From NCBI GenBank assembly GCA_964469365.1, contig CAYXYO010000207.1, positions 1 through 39,502 of the forward strand: DNA of 39,502 nt, given 5' to 3'. The DNA is from an uncultured Desulfobacterales bacterium. GTDB lineage: Bacteria; Desulfobacterota; Dissulfuribacteria; Dissulfuribacterales; QOAL01. The notes beneath the pieces were generated by a model, which was not told the origin of the DNA, ran no database searches, and worked only from the letters and a program-made list of their open reading frames with translations. The translations under genes were made by a program, and so were the position numbers. Positions 3,992-30,838 of the stretch are shown here, in pieces. Within the stretch, counting starts at the first letter, position 1; each line of letters starts with the position of its first letter.

Positions 3992-4124
3992 GGGACACCT
4001 GATCATTTTTGTTACAACATATCTGTTCAGATGGTATTAATCAACTTTGTGTAATGAATTTTCAGATGTTTTTGTTCTGTTGCTCCTTGCCCTGAGCTAA
4101 ACATCTTGATTTTTCAAGGCGTCC
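3992..4124 (+). repeat. Intergenic imperfect-palindrome repeat, family copy E
   Basis: The 3' half TTGTTCTGTTGCTCCTTGCCCTGAGCTAAACATCTTGATTTTTCAAGGCGTCC aligns with copies at 15846-15989 and 12116-12274. The 5' end CAGGGACACCTGATCATTTTTG resembles the family 5' arm. The copy ends 3 nt before the ATG at 4128. Confidence 0.5.
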
Positions 4125-4127
4125 TTA

Positions 4128-7070
4128 ATGGTTAGGAAAAAGTATTTTGACATTGTCAAGGTCAGTCTGACAGGGCGGATCGTGCTTATAGCCCTTCTGG
4201 CATCAGGGGCGGGTACGTGCCTGTTCGGTTGTCTCCATTATATGCTCGTATCTGACACATTGAGGGCCGAGGCATTGAAGCATATTGAAGCCAGTGTAAG
4301 GTTGTATGCCGTGGAGCTTGAGGATGATCTGGACACCCTTGTTAAAGATACGGCCTCGGCAGCCTGGATGTTATCCGAGTTTTCAGATAATGCGTCCGCT
4401 TTATCATTCCCTTATGACAATGGTGGAAGGTTAAGGAAGGCTCTTGAACATTTGATATGGTCAAACAGCAACTATATATCGCTTCATTGTGTAAGGCAGG
4501 GGAAGAAAGGTCTTGAGACGTTGTATGTTATTTCCCGGGATAAGAATGTGGAAGTCTCAGAGCAGTTTCTCAAGATGTCGGCAGGTTTTATCTACAGCAA
4601 CATGGCGTCTGTTCATGATGGCGAGGTGGTGGTCGGCAGTATCGGTCTCAGGGAGATAAAAGGCGTTACCATGCCAGTAACAGAGGCGATGACTTCCTTG
4701 CGTGCAGGTTCAATGGAGAAGATATTTGTTGGTATTACAATGGGAATAGATTGCAGTACGATCCCTGTTTGCAGCATATCAGGAGATAGCATGCAATTCA
4801 TAGTGTCAGATGGTCGTGATGTCAGGTTGATGACCTGGAGTGGCGCTCCCATTCAAACTCCTGGGCAGGCAGATGGTAATTCCCGTAAGATTGAGGCGTT
4901 TCTCAGGGATGGTGACAGGGAGGGAATAACTTTTTATTTCCCGGAACAGGTAGTCTCTTTCAGAAAGGTTTATTCCGGGACGGGGAACAAGAATCTTATG
5001 GTTGTGGGCGCAAGGTCGTCCTTGCGTATCCTGCAAAAAAAGCTTGGCGATTTAAGGCTCAAGGAGGTGTTATATATTGTCTTTACCCTGTGTATGGTAT
5101 GTGTAACTGTATTTGTGGCCACAAGGTTTTCGCTTCGTCCAGTCAAAAAACTTACAGAAGCGGCGAGACGTATAAGTGAGGGAGATGAAAGCGTTACCAT
5201 AGAGGCAGGGGGTAGTGATGAGATCGCCAGACTTGCTGAGGCCATAAAGATCATGCTTCAGCACATGATACGCACCAGAAGCCAGTACCATTTTCTTGTG
5301 GAATCTCTTGATGATCAGGTGAAGGCCAGGACCAGGGAACTGGAGGCCATGAACCTTGCGCTTGAAAAGGAGATAGAAGAGAAACGAAATGCCGAAAGAT
5401 CTCTTTTCCTTGCAGGCAAGATTGTGGAAAATACCCGTGAAGCTGTAATGATAACAGACGCAAACGGGATAATTCTGGAGGTGAACAAGGCCTTTTCAAG
5501 GATTACTGGCTACAGTCCATATGAAGTGATTGGCAGAAAACCTGATATCCTCAAGTCAGGAAAACAGAACAGGGAGTTTTACACCCGGCTATGGAAGAAG
5601 CTGAGAAGCACGGGACACTGGCAGGGTGAGATGTGGAACAGACGGAAAAACGGCGAACTGTATCCTGTCTGGAATTCCATCAGCGTTGTTTATGGCGACG
5701 AAGGCATGATAAGTAATTTTGTTTCCATTCATTCGGATATCACTGTGCTCAAGGAGACTGAAAGACGGCTTGAGCAGCTTGCCCATTATGATCCCTTGAC
5801 CGGTCTGCCAAACCGTACACTTTTACAGGACAGACTGAAGCAGTTGATACTGTTGTCTGAAAGGAATAATAAAAAGACAGCGGTTATTGTCCTTGATCTT
5901 GACGGGTTCAAAGAGATCAATGATACCATGGGACATGACAAGGGAGACGAAATCCTGATACAGGTTGCCGCCAGGTTGAAGGAGTGCGTCAGAAAGAGTG
6001 ATACCGTTGCCAGGCTCGGAGGCGATGAATTTGTGGTGGTGTTACCCAACATAAATTCCTTTGATAACCTGATATGGGTTGCCCAGAATATCATTGATGC
6101 CATGAATGATCCTTTTTATCTTGAAGACAAGAAGTTCCTTGTAACAGCCAGCCTGGGAATAGCTCTTTATCCAGATGATGGTAAAAGCGGCCAGACGGTT
6201 ATGAAAAATGCCGATGCCGCCATGTATGCCTCCAAGGAGAGTGGCAAGAATACTTTCCGGTTTTTCAAGGAAAGCATGCTTGACAAATCCATTTACAAGC
6301 TTTTTCGGGCAAGTGAGATCAGGGAAGCAATAGAACGTGGTGAATTTATTCTGCATTTTCAGCCGAGGTTCTGGACTGGCACGAGAAAGATACATAGCGC
6401 AGAGGCCCTTGTGCGGTGGGAACATCCGGAAAGAGGATTGATCTATCCCGGTGACTTTATTCCTCTGGCAGAGGAGACAGGGTTGATTACCAGGATAGAC
6501 AGATGGGTGTTGCAGGAGGCTTGCAGTAAAAACAGGGAACTGCAGGAAGCAACGGGAAGAAGTCTAGTCTTTTCCATTAACCTTTCAGCCAAGGATTTTG
6601 CCCAGCATAATCTCATTGATATTATAAATCGTTGTATTATGGATTCGGGTATTGCTCCTGCCTTGCTGGAGGTGGAAATCACCGAGACAGTGATTATGGA
6701 GGATGTGCAGAGGTCCATAAAAACCCTTGAGCGTCTCAAGGAAACAGGCGTTACAATATCTGTGGATGACTTTGGAACCGGTTACTCCTCACTCAGTTAC
6801 CTGAAGATGTTTCCCATAGATCTCCTCAAGATAGACAGATCCTTTGTGACAGGTCTGCCTGATGACCGTAATGATATGGCTGTTGTAGAGGCAATTATAG
6901 CCATGGGGCACGCTTTGGGCATGTCTGTTCTCGCAGAAGGGGTGGAAACTTCTGAACAGTTTGATTTTCTTGCCCGGAAAGGCTGCGATTTTATGCAGGG
7001 CTATTACTTTGCCAGGCCGGTTCCCTTTGATGTGCTGGAAAAGATGCTGTTGGCTGAATACAGCGCGTGA
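4128..7070 (+). CDS. Membrane sensor protein: extracytoplasmic domain, HAMP, PAS, GGDEF and EAL (c-di-GMP turnover)
   Basis: Two TM segments flank a domain of about 280 aa. HAMP: RPVKKLTEAARRISEGD...DEIARLAEAIKIM. PAS: ITDANGIILEVNKAFSRITGYSPYEVIG. The GGDEF site is intact (RLGGDEFVV) with RKSD in the RxxD I-site position. EAL motifs are intact (EALVRWEHP, DDFGTGYSSLSYL, KIDRSF, EGVET). Confidence 0.9.
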   Translation: MVRKKYFDIVKVSLTGRIVLIALLASGAGTCLFGCLHYMLVSDTLRAEALKHIEASVRLYAVELEDDLDTLVKDTASAAWMLSEFSDNASALSFPYDNGGRLRKALEHLIWSNSNYISLHCVRQGKKGLETLYVISRDKNVEVSEQFLKMSAGFIYSNMASVHDGEVVVGSIGLREIKGVTMPVTEAMTSLRAGSMEKIFVGITMGIDCSTIPVCSISGDSMQFIVSDGRDVRLMTWSGAPIQTPGQADGNSRKIEAFLRDGDREGITFYFPEQVVSFRKVYSGTGNKNLMVVGARSSLRILQKKLGDLRLKEVLYIVFTLCMVCVTVFVATRFSLRPVKKLTEAARRISEGDESVTIEAGGSDEIARLAEAIKIMLQHMIRTRSQYHFLVESLDDQVKARTRELEAMNLALEKEIEEKRNAERSLFLAGKIVENTREAVMITDANGIILEVNKAFSRITGYSPYEVIGRKPDILKSGKQNREFYTRLWKKLRSTGHWQGEMWNRRKNGELYPVWNSISVVYGDEGMISNFVSIHSDITVLKETERRLEQLAHYDPLTGLPNRTLLQDRLKQLILLSERNNKKTAVIVLDLDGFKEINDTMGHDKGDEILIQVAARLKECVRKSDTVARLGGDEFVVVLPNINSFDNLIWVAQNIIDAMNDPFYLEDKKFLVTASLGIALYPDDGKSGQTVMKNADAAMYASKESGKNTFRFFKESMLDKSIYKLFRASEIREAIERGEFILHFQPRFWTGTRKIHSAEALVRWEHPERGLIYPGDFIPLAEETGLITRIDRWVLQEACSKNRELQEATGRSLVFSINLSAKDFAQHNLIDIINRCIMDSGIAPALLEVEITETVIMEDVQRSIKTLERLKETGVTISVDDFGTGYSSLSYLKMFPIDLLKIDRSFVTGLPDDRNDMAVVEAIIAMGHALGMSVLAEGVETSEQFDFLARKGCDFMQGYYFARPVPFDVLEKMLLAEYSA

Positions 7071-7298
7071 CCGGATGGGGGGCAGTCATTTTAAGTTCTC
7101 CTTCACCTGATTCAGGCTGAGTAATAACAAAAGCTTTTTTGATGTCGTGAACTTGTTCCAACAAAGAGGCAGTGCCTGTTCTGCACTCGGACATGGAACT
7201 GATCCGTCTTGGTCAATTCTAATCCTTGGCATAACAGGAGCGACCGGCCGGTCGCTACGGTCCGGTTTAACAGTCTTCCCCCGTGCCGTAACCATTGG

Positions 7299-9027: not shown

Positions 9028-12000
9028 CTATCCGCCAATGGCGAAGACCTCGGGGTTGATGTCAGGAAAAACAGGATTTGCAGCCTCAAGCTCCTTCAGT
9101 CTGCATAGCGCGGTTTCATTGTGGCCGCCGTGCCAGAACAGGGCCGCGGCAATCCAGAAGCGTTCAAGGTCGCCGAGGTAAAACTCCTTCATACGGTCAA
9201 CAAAGTGACCGTTTGATATCACAAAAGGTATGTCGCTGTTCATGGCCTGGAGCACCTCCCTTGCTGCCTGCGCCCCTGCCCTGACGGCAAATTCGTCGTT
9301 CCTGCGGCTGTTCCTTATCTCTGTGGCAATGGCCACCATCTCCCGTATTGCCTCGTGGGTATGTCGGTACATCCATGAAACGGAACCGTACATCCACTTG
9401 TCAAAGGTGCCTTTGTCTCCCCAGGACGAGGGGTTGAGAAAGACTTCCTGGTTCCTGCCGTACCTCCTGAGGTATGCCCCCGGGGTTATCAGTTCTGTTT
9501 CATTTTGATTATAATAGAGCTTTTTCAACAGGAAATAGAGAAAATCCACCCCTTCATACCAGTGATGCCCAAAAAGTTCAGCGTCGTACATGGCCACCAC
9601 AACCGGTTTTTTCCAGAACCAGTTCCGTATGTGCTGAAACCTGAAGTTACGGGCCTCCATAAAGTGCTGGGCGTGCAGGGCTGCCTTTTCCATGGCCCGT
9701 TCCCTTACGTAAGCCTCCTTGAAATTGTTGTCCCTTGAGGTAATCCGGTTGTACTTCAGTGGTCCGCCCTTCATGTGAAATTCCAGGTAGTCAGGGTCTC
9801 CCGGATAGCCTTCGTCTCCGCTCCATACCTGTTTGCCGGTTTCAGGATCGCGGGCAAAGGCGGCCACGTCGCTTCCCTTGATGAATACCGGGGCGTGCAC
9901 CCCGAACTGCACATGGGCGTCGGCGTCAAGCACGCCATGGGTTTCAGTGAAAAAATACCTGAGCCCTGCTGCCTCAACATGCCTTTCAATGCCGGGAGTG
10001 TAGGCGCATTCAGGAAGCCATATCCCCAGGGGCATGCGGCCAAAGGTGTCGTTGTAATCATTGACCGCCGTTTCGATCTGGGCCCTTACGGATTCAGGAT
10101 AGGCGGTATAAAAGGGTAGAAAGGCATGGGTTGCCCCGCATGTGCTTATTTCAAGGCAGCCTGTCTCCTGGAACCTGGCAAAGGCCCTGGTGAGGTCACA
10201 GCCGTAACGTATAAAACAGTTCTTTGTCTCCAGAAACCTTTCAAGATGCATCCTCGCGGTGTCGTGATAATGACGCGCCTCCCGCCATGTCCTGTCAACC
10301 TCTGCCCTGGCGAGGCTTATATGGGCGTCCATGTACTTCAGAAATTCGTCCTGGAGCATGGGAGACCGCATCATGTTGGAAAGGGTTGGAGAAATGTCCA
10401 TGGAGAGCCGGAAATCCACCCCCTCATCCACAAGTTTTTCAAACATCCTTATGAGGGGCACATATGTTTCGCGGACTGCCTCGTGAAACCATTCCGGCGG
10501 GTATCCCATTGGCTGCCATACGCCGGAAGTGCCGTAGGAAACCCGTTCCCTGATAAAGGGCAGGTGCGCGTGCAGGTGAATGGCAAGCAGGCCCGATGAG
10601 TGAAGGGCCGAGTCCATGACCGACCTTACGGGAGCAAAGACAGGGTGTTCCCCTGAAAATGCCACGTCCCTGTAAACAGGGGGGTTGTGGCCATGACCCC
10701 TCCTTATTGTCTGTATGGCGTTTGATGGGGCTGTAAGCTCCTTCACGCTGCCGTCGCCTGCCGTGGCAATGAGCTGTACGCGATACACGCGGTCAGGTTC
10801 AAGGGCAATATAATAACTGTCTGTTATGCCCAGGTGAACTTCAACATCCCTGTCAGGGTGGTGATGCAGGCTGCCGCCAAACTCGTGAAATACCCTGATG
10901 TGGGTTTTTACCTCGCCATGAGCTTCTGCAAAGTCCCCAAGCCCTTTGTCAAGCCTTGCCCTGTCAAGATGCCAGTATGCAAATGCCCTTGCCTCGTCAA
11001 CCGGAAGAAGCGTTATGTGGTCTTCCCTTGCGGGAACGACGGCAGGGGAGGATTCAATTATCGGGATGCCTTCCGGATAGTTGCCGTTTTCATCTGCCGG
11101 ATACGCAGCAAGCACTGCAAAAAGGGCGTTATTGTCATCAAGGGAGTCAAAAAACCAGTCGGATACGCCGGGCGGCAGGGGGGCTGAAACCCTGAGAAGG
11201 GTCCTGCCCCTGGCGTCAAGCCTGTAAAGATTTACTTTCAGTTCAACATCCTGCCATGAAATGGAATGGGCCGCCTCGAACCTGTCGGCTATCTCCCGCC
11301 ACTCTTCAGGGGAGATGTCCCACCATGCCCTGGCCTGCACGGTATCTTCCTCCCAAACCTCCCGTTTAAGCTCCATAAAGGGCGAGCGGCCGGGGATGTC
11401 CAGCGTCTCTGAAAATAGTACCCTTTTTATTTCAGGAGATGGGAACTCAATGGTGAAAATTGTGGCAAGCGGGAAGGGGTTATCTTTAAGTGGCGCCCCA
11501 TTCCCCCTGTCTATAGCCCCCTTTTCCATTATTACCAGGGAAATCTCCGTTACAAAACCTGTTACCAGGGCATGATTTGAGAAGCCGACATCAATCCACT
11601 CCCTGTCTGATCTCTCGGAACCGCCGGTCCTGCCGTCGCGTCTGACGCGCAGCCACAGCTCCACGTCACTTTCCCAGTCAAGGCGGGTGGCGCTCTCCAC
11701 ATCATGCCGTATCCGGTCCCACTCCACGTCATGCCATGACAGATGGTGCCTCCCTTCATTTTCAGACACAAAGGAGATTCGGGGAGTCATGCCGTCAGGA
11801 GCTGAAATGTTGAGCCTGAACTTCTCTTTTGCCGCGAGAATCACCCTTGCCCCCTTTTCAATGTCAACCGGACATTCCACCTGATTCAGGAAAGAACACT
11901 TTCTTTCAATTGCGGGAGTGTCAGAACCTTCCGGAATAATTTGTAAAACAAGGTCTTCCTCAAGGGGGTTCAGGCCGGCTACGGTCTCGTCATTCCAGAG

Positions 12001-12099: not shown

Positions 12100-12115
12100 G
12101 GATATATACCTGGTA

Positions 12116-12274
12116 GTGCCTTGCAAGATTGTCTTTCTGGCACATGGATGCGTTGTTGGCGAAATGAAAAATGTTTACATGGTGTTGCGGCGTTTTCGAA
12201 CTTGTTGCTTCCCGCACTGAACCGGAAATCCGGTTTCATAAATATTCTGTTAAAGGATACATGTTGCAAGGAGA
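12116..12274 (+). repeat. Intergenic imperfect-palindrome repeat, family copy A
   Basis: GTGCCTTGCAAGATTGTCTTTCTGG...GAAATGAAAAAT...GTTGCGGCGTTTTCGAACTTGTTGCTTCCCGCACTGAACCGGAAATCCGGTTTCA aligns along its length with copy B. A distal TTGCAAGGAGAG may be the 3' arm. It lies between the DUF190 stop and the GH57 start, both on the minus strand. Confidence 0.55.
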
Positions 12275-13021: not shown

Positions 13022-13150
13022 GACTTCATTCCAGTATTCAATAAACAGACAACCATTTTGTTGACATGTGAAGATTAAGCCTGTAAAGATTAACATAACA
13101 GTCTGTTTTTAACAAGCGCATAATCATTCCAAACAGTTAGGAGTTGACAA

Positions 13151-14086: not shown

Positions 14087-14128
14087 GGAGAGCCTCCCCG
14101 CATTCAATATCGCCGCGCTGTTTAATGC

Positions 14129-14175
14129 GGTTATTTCCCGTGCCGCGCTGGAAAGTCCGGTGTTTCAAGGCATCC
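14129..14175 (+). repeat. Partial (3' half) copy of the intergenic repeat family, copy F
   Basis: GGTTATTTCCCGTGCCGCGCTGGAAAGTCCGGTGTTTCAAGGCATCC aligns with the 3' arm of copy B (GGTTGTTCCTTGCGCTGAACCAGAAAGTCCGGTTTTTCAAGGCGTCC). The 5' boundary is uncertain. Confidence 0.4.
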
Positions 14176-15692: not shown

Positions 15693-15845
15693 TATAAATA
15701 TTCCCTGATGCCGCTTGAGCAGACTCGATTCGCGTGTTAGTTATGAGCGTATGACGCATGTAAAAGAGAATGTGAAACTTTATCTTGACAACAAAATTTC
15801 CTTCATGGTAACTCTATATATTAAGTGTACAAAATTCAACCTTCA

Positions 15846-15989
15846 GGGCACCTTGCAAGATTGTCTTTTCTGGTCAGTTGTCGCGTCATTGACAAAATGA
15901 AAATAATTGTATCTGGCTGATACGTTGCGTTTTTTCGTTTGGTTGTTCCTTGCGCTGAACCAGAAAGTCCGGTTTTTCAAGGCGTCCCC
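15846..15989 (+). repeat. Intergenic imperfect-palindrome repeat, family copy B (best-preserved copy)
   Basis: The 5' arm is GGGCACCTTGCAAGATTGTCTTTTCTGGTCAG. The reverse complement of the 3' arm is GGGGACGCCTTGAAAAACCGGACTTTCTGGTTCAG. The internal blocks are shared with the copies at 12116, 30640, 3992 and 22668. The copy ends 41 nt before the porC ATG. Confidence 0.65.
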
Positions 15990-18109: not shown

Positions 18110-19044
18110 TACCTGAACTGGAAAAATTCAAAGGTTTTAAGGCTAAAAGTATCCCGCAGGATGAACCGCTTGCCCCAGGCCACCGGGCATGTCAGGGGTG
18201 CGGAGAGGTCCTTGCCCTCAGGATGGTGATGAAGGCCCTTGGCCGGGATGTTATTGTATGCAATTCAACAGGATGCATGGAGATTATTACATCACCATTT
18301 CCACATACCGCCTGGCGGGTGCCATGGATTCATATAGCGTTTGAAAACTCGGCGTCTGTTGCATCAGGCGTTGAGGCGGCCCGCAAGGTTCTGCGAAGAA
18401 AGGGCAAGATTCCCAGGAAAAAGATAAATATCATGGCAGTGGGCGGAGACGGAGCCACTGGCGATATAGGTCTTCAGTGGATATCAGGGGCCTTTGAAAG
18501 GGGGCATGATTTCCTTTATGTGTGTCTTGACAACGAGGCGTATATGAATACAGGTGTGCAGCGGTCAGGCAGTACGCCATACGGCGCCATGACCACAACC
18601 ACCCCGCCGGGCAAGACAAGTTTCGGAGAGCTGAAATGGAAAAAGAATGTCCCGGCCATTGCCGTTGCCCACAACATACCCTATGTGGCCACGGCCTCAC
18701 CCGCGTATTATCTTGATCTGATGAACAAGATTAAAAAGGCGGCCCTTGTAGAGGGACCGGCCTATGTGCATATATATTCTCCATGTCCCACTGGCTGGGG
18801 GTCAGCCGGTGAGCGCTCCGTCGAGTTTTCAAGGCTGGCTGTGGAAACAAAGGTCTTTCCGCTCTATGAAGTCATAGAAGGGCGCTATGTTATGAGCCGC
18901 AAGATCAGCAAACCCAAACCGGAAACTGATTATCTCAAGGGACAGAGAAGGTTCAGACATCTGGATGAGCAACATATAGATCATATTCAGAAACGTGTTG
19001 ATGCGGAATATGAAAAACTGGTTAAACTGTCAGAGATGACATGA
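18106..19044 (+). CDS. porB: 2-oxoacid:ferredoxin oxidoreductase, beta subunit (TPP-binding)
   Basis: Contains CQGCGE, the TPP motif AVGGDGATGDIGLQ...LDNEAYMNTG and a CPTGW block. The start overlaps the porA stop (ATGA). Confidence 0.9.
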   Translation: MIPELEKFKGFKAKSIPQDEPLAPGHRACQGCGEVLALRMVMKALGRDVIVCNSTGCMEIITSPFPHTAWRVPWIHIAFENSASVASGVEAARKVLRRKGKIPRKKINIMAVGGDGATGDIGLQWISGAFERGHDFLYVCLDNEAYMNTGVQRSGSTPYGAMTTTTPPGKTSFGELKWKKNVPAIAVAHNIPYVATASPAYYLDLMNKIKKAALVEGPAYVHIYSPCPTGWGSAGERSVEFSRLAVETKVFPLYEVIEGRYVMSRKISKPKPETDYLKGQRRFRHLDEQHIDHIQKRVDAEYEKLVKLSEMT

Positions 19045-19052
19045 CTGTTCAG

Positions 19053-19083
19053 AGCCTCCTGTTAATCAGGAGGCTTTTTTTTT
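19053..19083 (+). terminator. Rho-independent terminator of the por operon
   Basis: A perfect 9-bp stem AGCCTCCTG / CAGGAGGCT with loop TTAAT, followed by a run of Ts, 9 nt after the porB stop. Confidence 0.75.
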
Positions 19084-19181
19084 GAAAGCTATCTGAAAAA
19101 GAAGGTATTTTCCGTCCTGTCTCATTGTCAGGGCCTTGCGCGCAATAACAGCATAACCGGAGCATCCGGAAAGTTTGGGAA

Positions 19182-20117
19182 ATGGACAAATTTCAGCAAC
19201 GGCATATACTGGGCATAGAACACCTCTCCGCATCTGATATCGAGTTTATCCTGGATACTGCGGAATCCCTTAAAAGCATACTGGACAGGCCGATAAAAAA
19301 GGTGCCGACCCTGAGGGGGCGCACAGTGGTTATGCTTTTCTTTGAACCAAGTACAAGGACAAAACTCTCCTTTGACCTGGCGGCAAAAAGGTTGAGCGCC
19401 GATTCAGTGGGCATAACCGCGTCAGCCAGCAGCATTGTCAAGGGTGAGACACTGATAGATACGGCCAGAAACATAGAAGCCATGAAGCCGGATGTAATCG
19501 TAATGCGTCATCCAATGTCAGGGGCGCCTCATCTGATGGCCCGACACGTTGACGCCGCGGTAATCAACGCCGGAGACGGCACCAATGAACACCCTTCCCA
19601 GGCCCTGCTGGACATGATGACAATACGTGAAAGAAAGGGGCGTATAAAGGGGTTGCAGGTGGCGATAATAGGTGATATCGCGCACAGCAGGGTAGCCAAA
19701 TCCGATATCAGGGCCCTTGTGAAGATGGGGGCCAGGGTGCGTGTGGCCGGTCCGGCCACAATGATGCCCAGATGCGTGGAAACCCTTGGCGCTGAGCCGT
19801 ATCTTCATATTGAAGAGGCCATAAGGGATGCCGATGTTGTTATGACCCTGAGGATTCAGCGGGAGAGGCAGGGCAGGGGGCTGTTCCCCAGCGAAAGGGA
19901 GTATGCCGCAAGATTCGGCATAAACAGTAAAAATTTTTCATTGGCAAGAGATGATGCCCTTATAATGCATCCAGGCCCGATAAACAGGGGGATTGAACTG
20001 ACAAATGAGCTTGCGGATTCAGACAGATCCGTCATACTCGACCAGGTGACAAACGGGGTGGCCGTAAGGATGGCCCTTTTTTCACTGCTCCTTCCTGAAC
20101 TCAGGCCGGAAACGTGA
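19182..20117 (+). CDS. pyrB: Aspartate carbamoyltransferase catalytic subunit
   Basis: FFEPSTRTKLSF, MRHP, NEHPSQALLD and HPGPINRG motifs. Confidence 0.92.
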   Translation: MDKFQQRHILGIEHLSASDIEFILDTAESLKSILDRPIKKVPTLRGRTVVMLFFEPSTRTKLSFDLAAKRLSADSVGITASASSIVKGETLIDTARNIEAMKPDVIVMRHPMSGAPHLMARHVDAAVINAGDGTNEHPSQALLDMMTIRERKGRIKGLQVAIIGDIAHSRVAKSDIRALVKMGARVRVAGPATMMPRCVETLGAEPYLHIEEAIRDADVVMTLRIQRERQGRGLFPSEREYAARFGINSKNFSLARDDALIMHPGPINRGIELTNELADSDRSVILDQVTNGVAVRMALFSLLLPELRPET

Positions 20118-22637: not shown

Positions 22638-22667
22638 GTCCGACAATATATGTTTTTGAACTTTAAT

Positions 22668-22756
22668 GGACGCCTTGTAAAGTCGCTTTTTTGGGGGCTT
22701 GTTGTCTTGGCCGTTGTCGAATTGACCAACAAGAAATAATGTTTTCAAGGCATACC
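22668..22756 (+). repeat. Shortened copy of the intergenic repeat family, copy D
   Basis: The 5' arm GGACGCCTTGTAAAGTCGCTTTTTTGG and 3' arm AATGTTTTCAAGGCATACC match the family arms. The internal region is shorter. The copy ends 22 nt before the rubrerythrin ATG. Confidence 0.45.
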
Positions 22757-22778
22757 TTATAGCTATAGGTGAAGAAAG

Positions 22779-23354: not shown

Positions 23355-23557
23355 TGATTTTTAATAACGGAAGGTGTAATTCAAATCAAGAAAAGTGAAC
23401 AAGTTCACTGGATCTATCATGTAGATCATTCCAACCGAATAATTTCACTTGCAAACAACTGGTCAGAAAGTCATGTGTTCGTTCAAACAGCTTTTATATT
23501 TTTATCAACATGAATCTTGAATTACATGCGGCTACTAAGATTAGCCAATCAATTACA

Positions 23558-30354: not shown

Positions 30355-30639
30355 TTTAAATACCTCCGGTATCAATGTTTATTCAATAAGTCCCTAATCT
30401 TTCAAGGAACCATTCTCTATTTATGAAAAGCTGTTTGGTATATGTCGAAGACATGATTGATGAGGTGTTCATTATAACCGTTCATGTCCAGCCTAAGCAT
30501 TATTAAAAGTAATATCACATTTCATCAAGAGGGGAAGCAACTTTATTTTTTACTTTGTTATATATTCGGGTATTATCTGCCTGTATTTGGAATGAGTGTT
30601 GCTTGAAAATGGCTTAAAACATGTTAGTAAAGATTGACA

Positions 30640-30776
30640 GGGGGTCTTGCAAGATCGCCTTTTGGATCAATTGCTGCGTCGTTGCTGAAATAGAAATTCT
30701 TTGCATCTGGATGAATATGCTGCGATTTTTAATTTTGTTACTCCATGCGTTGAACCCAAAATGTATTTTTCAAAGT
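30640..30776 (+). repeat. Intergenic imperfect-palindrome repeat, family copy C
   Basis: GGGGGTCTTGCAAGATCGCCTTTTGGATCAATTGCTGCGTCGTTGCTGAAATAGAAAT...CATCTGGATGAATATGCTGCGATTTTT...TTGTTACTCCATGCGTTGAACCCAAAATGTATTTTTCAAAG aligns block-for-block with copy B. The copy ends about 62 nt before the cyclase ATG. Confidence 0.55.
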
Positions 30777-30838
30777 ATTCTATGTGCATTTGAACTTTTG
30801 GATATCAAGCGGGAAGTTTACTGTTGAGGGTTGTAACC

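Follow-up and report, generated by a model that had tools for sequence, protein, structure and literature searches.

Intergenic repeats in a Dissulfuribacterales contig are probably decayed copies of a hairpin-forming MITE

Six related repeats lie between the genes of a 39,502-nucleotide stretch of DNA from an uncultured Desulfobacterales bacterium, hereafter the window. With a probability that we put at roughly 0.85, they are old, decayed copies of a ~145-bp non-coding MITE that folds into one hairpin. The window copies appear to be transposon-derived, judging by their homology to younger copies and by one empty site: the younger relatives outside the window bear terminal inverted repeats and 4-bp target-site duplications, an orthologous site in a close relative lacks the element, and the window copies themselves have diverged. 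Of the options that the preliminary description of this DNA had left open, these observations favor a decayed MITE. The family seems to be new, but of a known kind and apparently undescribed: Rfam gave no match at any copy, whether at gathering thresholds or at E <= 5, and no description of it turned up in the literature, whether searched by topic or by sequence string. The earlier statement that the repeat belongs to no named family thus holds for Rfam and the searchable literature.

Six related segments between ordinary chromosomal genes

The genes of the window are those of an ordinary chromosome: serA, a GGDEF-EAL sensor gene, rnhB, a K+ channel gene, a GH57 branching enzyme gene, crcB-DUF190, genes for Tim44-like and HU-family proteins, rlmN, porCDAB, pyrB, pyrC, an NMO-family gene, a rubrerythrin gene, dapA, dapB and a GGDEF cyclase gene. 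The window coincides with one metagenome contig; its genes are also found on contigs of JGI 3300039273 and ENA ERZ27262694, and the ENA contig and the window end together. The nearest named relatives of the window PorC come from MAGs labelled Thermodesulfobacteria, Desulfobacteraceae and Dissulfuribacterales, and the window SerA shares 65% identity with its Desulfogranum mediterraneum counterpart, which suggests an uncultured representative of Desulfobacterota in the broad sense. The repeats lie between these genes as follows:

Copy A: 3992–4124, + strand; full-length size, with the terminal GGGACACC and the 3' half (~4069–4124) recognizable.
Copy B: 12112–12254, + strand; full length except for ~8 nt lost from the interior; 3' arm degraded.
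Copy C: 14111–14175, + strand; 5'-truncated, 3' half alone.
Copy D: 15846–15989, + strand; best preserved in the window, forming a 144-nt end-to-end hairpin.
Copy E: 22668–22756, + strand; short form with both termini present and ~75 nt of the interior deleted.
Copy F: 30640–30780, + strand; full length, with the same 105-nt spacing of arm motifs as D.

The repeat family and all six of its members are real. Our base nhmmer profile was made from copies A, B, D and F, and the six segments were also aligned and read directly. This profile picked up fragment C, which it did not contain, at E = 1.6e-5, and leave-one-out versions recovered the omitted copies D (4.7e-17), F (1.1e-15) and B (6.7e-11); with copy A left out, 4069–4130 alone was regained (E = 1.7e-5). 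Fragment C, a member of no seed, scored ~1e-5 (1.6e-5 to 1e-4) in three of four nhmmer models and dropped to E = 0.21 in the model without D. A second nhmmer profile, assembled from metagenome and Desulfogranum copies alone and containing zero window sequence, matched D (2.7e-12) and F (9.4e-11) over their length and, in part, B (5' part, 4.2e-6) and A (3' part, 4077–4128, E = 1e-3). A profile for type I, one of two subfamilies described below, matched C at E = 4.8e-5 and, over model positions 5–57, copy E at E = 0.018. The short copy E was also found by a covariance model (R1, filters off) at 22664–22759, with 23.2 bits and E = 2.8e-4.

Leave-one-out, no-window and covariance models therefore place the relatedness of the six same-strand intergenic segments, as proposed in the preliminary description, beyond chance. 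Its accounts of every window copy as intergenic, of C as a 3'-half fragment and of E as an internally deleted form proved correct, as did the distances of 3, 22, 41 and 62 nt that it gave to four plus-strand start codons. Its estimate of two-thirds identity was somewhat generous: pairwise identities between the full-length window copies, once computed, run from 47 to 70% (D-F 70%, D-B 58%, D-A 59%), at or below that figure. In copy A, homology can be recognized in the 3' half and in the terminal GGGACACC only. Five weaker relics that it had suspected (94–125, 7071–7290, 19131–19177, 23440–23480 and 30395–30415) were significant in no model; the best scores near them were E = 0.9–8 at 30393–30411 and E = 1.6–2.3 at ~19180–19217. 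The element is AT-richer than its surroundings, with a GC content of 0.36–0.45 versus 0.49 for the contig.

Copies A, D, E and F all precede plus-strand genes. At its 3' end, copy A comes within 3 nt of the ATG of the GGDEF-EAL gene, which encodes 980 amino acids, and copy F is located ~58–62 nt upstream of the ATG of the GGDEF diguanylate cyclase gene (30839, a start that agrees with the ENA gene call). Copy E occupies the gap that separates the NMO-family gene from the rubrerythrin gene and stops 22 nt short of the rubrerythrin ATG; its 5' end and the 3' end of copy A are reverse complements of each other (inverted repeat I13). Copy D separates a promoter-like block of porC (~15779–15825) from the ribosome-binding site and the start codon ATG (16031) of that gene. 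Copy B is flanked by two minus-strand genes, for the GH57 branching enzyme and DUF190 (by Pfam), and hence is antisense to both. Copy C begins 24 nt past the stop codon of the Tim44-like gene and lies upstream of a TTGACA-N17-TATATA promoter-like site that precedes the HU-family gene (hup).

The sole Shine-Dalgarno-like sequence of the GGDEF-EAL gene, an AAGG 8 nt 5' of its ATG, belongs to the terminus of copy A (4110–4130), so that the element may supply the ribosome-binding site of this gene. In copy B, a reading of TGGCAC...TGC as a sigma-54 promoter was rejected, as its spacing is one base short and the motif, by eye, is not shared. Consensus scans for promoters and terminators around the copies returned sites no more frequently than in shuffled sequences and are hence uninformative.

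Two further gaps on the contig drew our attention. The minus-strand crcB-DUF190 fluoride-export operon has an upstream gap of only ~54 nt (13097–13150), in which no fluoride riboswitch was found even at an Rfam threshold of E <= 5. In the gap between porB and pyrB, positions 19009–19083 gave a weak match to the Rfam family Phe_leader (26.6 bits, E = 2.1, below gathering) that is probably due to chance; an attenuator could be present in the pyrB leader.

Younger relatives, element ends and the empty site at porC

Outside the window, a metagenome scan and one genome match provided 26 related copies, of which 23 are full length; in most, exactly 105 nt separate the two arm motifs. The genome-collection scan, made with the 5' arm plus GCGT, gave one true match, a full-length copy in Desulfogranum mediterraneum DSM 13871 (L011, 853–1002), and 11 chance matches, most of which represent one conserved Thaumarchaeota locus. 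Scanning viral contigs with the 5' arm gave zero matches, and the strict pattern gave zero matches in the metagenome collection, because that collection does not contain the window organism. A relaxed two-arm pattern returned 45 metagenome loci, about 20 of which (at least 20) were confirmed by profile search to hold real copies. In 17 of the 45, the match length was exactly 130, equivalent to the 105-nt spacing of arm motifs found in D, F and the Desulfogranum copy, a peak far from the flat distribution expected by chance. The other pattern matches are due to chance. Among them, seven soil loci (L031, L036, L042, L045, L048, L051 and L059) match with a 128-nt span and are unrelated to the element; they represent one conserved, probably coding sequence. 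Pattern matches thus need a profile check.

Samples Ga0180007 and Ga0180008 contribute at least eight copies on separate contigs, mostly ~85–90% identical by eye, whereas single loci can hold several copies: two in L061 and five within 6.3 kb in L057. The copies form two subfamilies. Type I comprises window copies D, F and B together with L034, L057b and L057c; type II comprises the Ga0180007/8 group, L026, L037, L044, the Desulfogranum copy and others. Shortened derivatives, either truncated or internally deleted, are C and E in the window and L057 1455–1526 and L061 4440–4552 outside it. Within L057 (1455–5271), the five copies belong to both subfamilies, lie in both orientations between small unrelated genes (the products look glyoxalase-like, NUDIX-like, HNH-like and PEP-CTERM-like when read by eye) and mark a local insertion hotspot.

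Throughout, the copies are intergenic and always lie between unrelated genes, with neighbors that include a poly(A) polymerase-family gene, fabF, GGDEF/HD-GYP genes and genes for glycosyltransferases, histidine kinases, solute-binding proteins and an OYE reductase. Genes for c-di-GMP turnover (GGDEF, GGDEF-EAL and HD-GYP) are neighbors in five of about 30 contexts (window copies A and F; L029, L039 and L061), a raw count that may reflect the mere abundance of such genes in these genomes. Young type II copies reside in the NCBI MAG GCA_018819365.1, labelled "Proteobacteria bacterium" (L063 1017–2255, and L068), the FabF of which is closest to Thiotrichales (70–72% identity). Set beside the Desulfogranum host, this one gene suggests that the family may cross large taxonomic distances by horizontal spread.

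The intact element is ~145 bp long (unit 140–150 bp) and non-coding: most frames contain stop codons, the few open stretches do not exceed ~67 codons, and six-frame peptides of four copies had no match among 5.8 billion proteins. It starts with GG(G/C)CACCTTG(C)AAAATTGCC and finishes with an imperfect reverse complement of this start, ...TTTTTCAAGG(T/C)ACCC. In the resulting terminal inverted repeat, the 5' GG(G/C)CACCTTG(C)AAAA matches the reverse-complemented 3' end, GGG(T/C)ACCTTGAAAAA; the sequence of the element terminus is GGSYACCTTGNAAAATTGCC. The profile matches both strands of each copy, and minus-strand matches occur inside the window too, as does I13.

When the younger copies are aligned together with their flanks, similarity ends sharply at GG(G/C)CACC... 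on the left and at ...GG(T/C)ACCC on the right. Identical 4-nt flanks mark 15 of the 21 full-length copies from other loci, whereas in 20,000 permutations of the right flanks the matches averaged 2.1 and never exceeded 8. The duplicated tetramers, TTAA in five copies and TCAA, TTAT, TAAA, TTTA, ATTA, GTAA, TTGC, AAAG, TACA and ATCT in one copy each, are mostly AT-rich, and because the tetramer varies from copy to copy, it comes from the target and does not belong to the element. At the next base outward, nine of the 15 perfect duplications have a C in common as well, which leaves some room for a 5-bp duplication in some insertion events. The window copies have no clean duplication (three of four nucleotides in A and in E, none in D or F); this loss, together with their identity of 47–70%, marks them as old.

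At porC, an occupied and an empty site can be compared directly. The closest relative that we found, L016, encodes a PorC that is 88% identical to that of the window and has the same rlmN-porC arrangement. Its rlmN-porC intergenic region measures 178 nt versus 338 nt in the window, and in the alignment a gap of ~155 nt in L016 spans the whole of copy D. Conserved on both sides of the comparison are, in full, the block AAACTTTA.CTTGACAA.AAAA..TCCTTC.TGGTAACTCTATATATTAAG and, in addition, GGGAGATTTAT.ATG, the porC ribosome-binding site and start codon. Because L016 keeps the promoter block and the ribosome-binding site without D, copy D is an insertion into the por leader. A contig of the same species, L001, has D with two substitutions. 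The family's dispersal is thus seen both in six copies within 39.5 kb and in presence versus absence at the porC leader. No copies were found in the relatives' loci L016–L021 (~67 kb, partly redundant), which points to a lineage-specific expansion.

The conserved stretch 5' of porC extends over ~50 nt and is near-identical between the window (15779–15825) and L016 (~9905–9957). It contains TTGACA, an 18-nt spacer, TGgTAACTC (an extended -10) and then TATATATTAAG. Judging from these motifs, it is probably the promoter of the por operon; the consensus promoter scan did not flag it. If this assignment is right, D lies ~25 nt downstream of the transcription start, within the 5' leader.

The hairpin and its conservation

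As plus-strand RNA, copy D folds into a 144-nt hairpin of -49.2 kcal/mol (z = -4.5). Folds are weak in copy A (z = -1.9, with paired ends) and in the Desulfogranum copy (z = -1.8), and those of B (z = +0.4), F (z = +0.3) and E (z ~0) are no better than those of shuffled sequences. The earlier proposal that the unit could fold into one long hairpin is accordingly borne out significantly for D and weakly for A, whereas the hairpin has been lost from B, F and E. The young copy L049, taken as DNA, folds end to end on both strands (z = -6.8 and -4.6).

We applied the end-to-end hairpin of L049 to 24 copies. Paired cells made up 86%, compared to 77% in column shuffles, none of which reached the observed value in 500 trials, and 32–50% in slid controls. 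Compensatory base changes, which the preliminary description had suggested looking for, are present: 28 pairs have changed on both sides (0/500 shuffles reach this number), and such cells number 104 versus 35 expected. End-to-end pairing has thus been maintained across two subfamilies by compensatory change, with counts that shared ancestry inflates. On the model strand, RNAalifold gave a weak consensus, and the hairpin became clear only with the other strand and a named structure.

Wobble pairs are strand-specific: the reverse model strand is the more stable one in 23 of 23 full-length copies outside the window, and the forward model strand in the three full-length window copies. With respect to the neighboring genes, 10 copies have their more stable strand in sense and 7 in antisense orientation; the others are ambiguous. 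Because orientation to genes is random, we do not take the strand-specific wobble as evidence of a strand-specific RNA function. More likely, the pairing constraint acts on transposition competence, or each subfamily had a palindromic founder. The compensatory changes and the unusually constant length indicate a constraint beyond the needs of short terminal repeats, and an added role at the level of RNA or single-stranded DNA is conceivable.

These features suggest how the family may have spread. A DDE-type transposase encoded elsewhere would move the element in trans by 4-bp staggered cuts; we propose an enzyme of this type because staggered cuts of that kind give such duplications. Copies would insert into intergenic DNA in either orientation and then decay. 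Neither the window nor the ~0.48 Mb of loci examined yielded an autonomous transposon with these ends; no solo termini were found near transposases in any of these loci, and no transposase gene adjoins any copy. The window copies can probably no longer move, since their duplications are absent, their identity is down to 47–70% and the arms of B and F are damaged. Copy D, and probably A, E and F, would be co-transcribed with the downstream gene and add a long stem-loop to its 5' leader, which, by analogy with reports on Correia and ERIC elements, could alter mRNA stability or translation.

Alternative readings and known systems

There is an outside chance that the repeats had a MITE origin and that individual copies, or the family, are now selected as structured RNA or single-stranded DNA hairpins that serve as an mRNA stabilizer or processing site, a terminator or a protein-binding site. 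The excess pairing (86% versus 77%) with its 28 two-sided pairs (0/500), the spacing of the arm motifs at exactly 105 nt across different hosts, and the position of copies very near gene ends or starts, such as the AAGG of copy A 8 nt before the GGDEF-EAL ATG, are all consistent with this reading. However, the fold has decayed in B, F and E and is partial in A, and this decay argues against selection on the window copies. Moreover, orientation to transcription is random while the wobble pairs are strand-specific, and covariation also results from selection for transposition competence or from separately founded subfamilies. We give still less credence to a reading in which the hairpin itself is the functional unit, either as the single-stranded DNA substrate of an unusual 4-bp-duplicating transposition or as a structured RNA module kept by the hosts in the leaders and trailers of genes for signalling and redox functions. 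Fixed length and the kept hairpin extend across two subfamilies, and the hosts (Desulfobulbales, the window organism and the MAG with a Thiotrichales-like FabF) may span different phyla.

It is very improbable that the repeats are of REP/REPIN origin and were dispersed by a RAYT (IS200/IS605-like Y1) transposase, or that they are ERIC-like with a host function. The copies do resemble such repeats in being intergenic, in forming a long imperfect hairpin on both strands with pairing kept by compensatory change, and in having no transposase adjacent to them. REP/REPIN, like other IS200/IS605-type mobilization, leave no target-site duplication, yet 15 of 21 copies carry 4-bp duplications, which contradicts a REP/REPIN origin and with it the ERIC/REP-like option raised at the outset. 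In addition, the element is AT-rich and does not consist of two short GC-rich REP palindromes, neither the window nor any other locus examined contains a RAYT/Y1 gene, and there is no sequence similarity to ERIC.

Marginally harder still to sustain is the proposal that the copies are a shared cis-regulatory 5'-leader RNA, riboswitch- or attenuator-like, for genes of c-di-GMP, redox and pyruvate-oxidation functions. Four window copies end 3–62 nt before co-oriented plus-strand start codons, copy D has a strong plus-strand RNA fold with a stem that covaries, and several outside copies lie near GGDEF/HD-GYP genes (L029, L039 and L061). But the orientation is mixed (10 versus 7), B is antisense to both of its neighbors, C precedes the promoter-like site of hup, the next gene, and the functions of the downstream genes are unrelated. 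The porC leader of the closest relative does without the element despite a conserved promoter block and ribosome-binding site, the target-site duplications indicate insertion events, Rfam has no match even at E <= 5, and the fold is lost in B, E and F. Mixed orientation, antisense B, the position of C 5' of the apparent hup promoter and the empty porC leader thus speak against the shared regulatory leader that the preliminary description had offered as an option. Integron attC sites, or another cassette-array repeat, can be set aside: the five copies in 6.3 kb between small unrelated genes of L057 and the attC-like size and imperfect palindromes recall such arrays, but RYYYAAC/GTTRRRY core sites are missing, the termini read GGCCACC...GGTACCC, orientations in L057 are mixed, large housekeeping operons (por, pyrBC) lie beside the window copies, the 4-nt duplications vary by copy, and no integrase gene was found.

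If the segments are decayed MITE copies, they should be masked in annotation as transposon relics and not recorded as new regulatory RNA. The family testifies to lineage-specific activity of transposons among uncultured bacteria of the sulfur cycle, and its termini and fixed length constitute a probe for the cognate transposase and for horizontal spread between hosts. A mobile-element specialist would find nothing surprising here. What merits following up is the cognate transposase, the strongly kept full-length hairpin and possible effects on por and c-di-GMP gene expression: the predicted 144-nt hairpin that was put into the leader of the pyruvate:ferredoxin oxidoreductase operon could alter its expression and so, to judge by its position, could the copy that abuts the start codon of the c-di-GMP enzyme gene.

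Two transposon families have ends comparable to those of the element. IS5-group elements have termini that start with GG and produce 4-bp duplications at YTAR-type targets, including TTAA. The GG termini and 4-bp duplications described here are compatible with the IS5 family as a parent, but many of the tetramers are non-YTAR. An IS5-like transposase with these ends was not found in the window or the loci examined, and we treat an IS5-family parent as a lead only. Tn3-derived TIMEs resemble the element in their GGG/GGGG termini (copy F GGGGGTCT versus the Tn3 end GGGGTCTGA) and AT-rich targets. Tn3-family elements make 5-bp duplications and have 38-bp repeats that end in TAAG. We rejected a Tn3-derived TIME, as only 9 of the 4-bp duplications (found in 15 of 21 copies) extend to 5 bp and no TAAG occurs at positions 35–38.

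Chunjie of Geobacter uraniireducens, Nezha of cyanobacteria and MITEAba12 are named prokaryotic MITEs that serve for comparison. The definition of prokaryotic MITEs fits the features of the element, including direct repeats that are lost with age: like them, it is shorter than 500 bp, non-coding, AT-rich and intergenic, with inverted repeats, fading short duplications and a stable stem-loop (PMC10969869). Unlike MITEs in general, the whole 145 bp are palindromic here, with compensatory changes, and the sequence matches no described family that we found.

ERIC sequences are likewise imperfect palindromes (~127 bp) that are intergenic, co-transcribed and diverged, with some internally deleted members. 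They differ in lacking sequence similarity to the element, in their hosts and in bearing few signs of recent transposition, in contrast to the clear 4-bp duplications observed here. The Correia elements (CREE) of Neisseria are similar in size (~100–155 bp) and in inserting between promoter and gene, many of them just 5' of genes; by co-transcription, they form mRNA hairpins, and they have internally deleted short forms comparable to copy E. RNase III processing and promoter activity have been shown for Correia elements. Correia elements differ in their TA duplication, their unrelated 26-bp repeats and their Neisseria hosts (general background and PMC10969869). In behavior, Correia and ERIC are the closest known systems, from which the family described here differs in sequence, duplication length and hosts.
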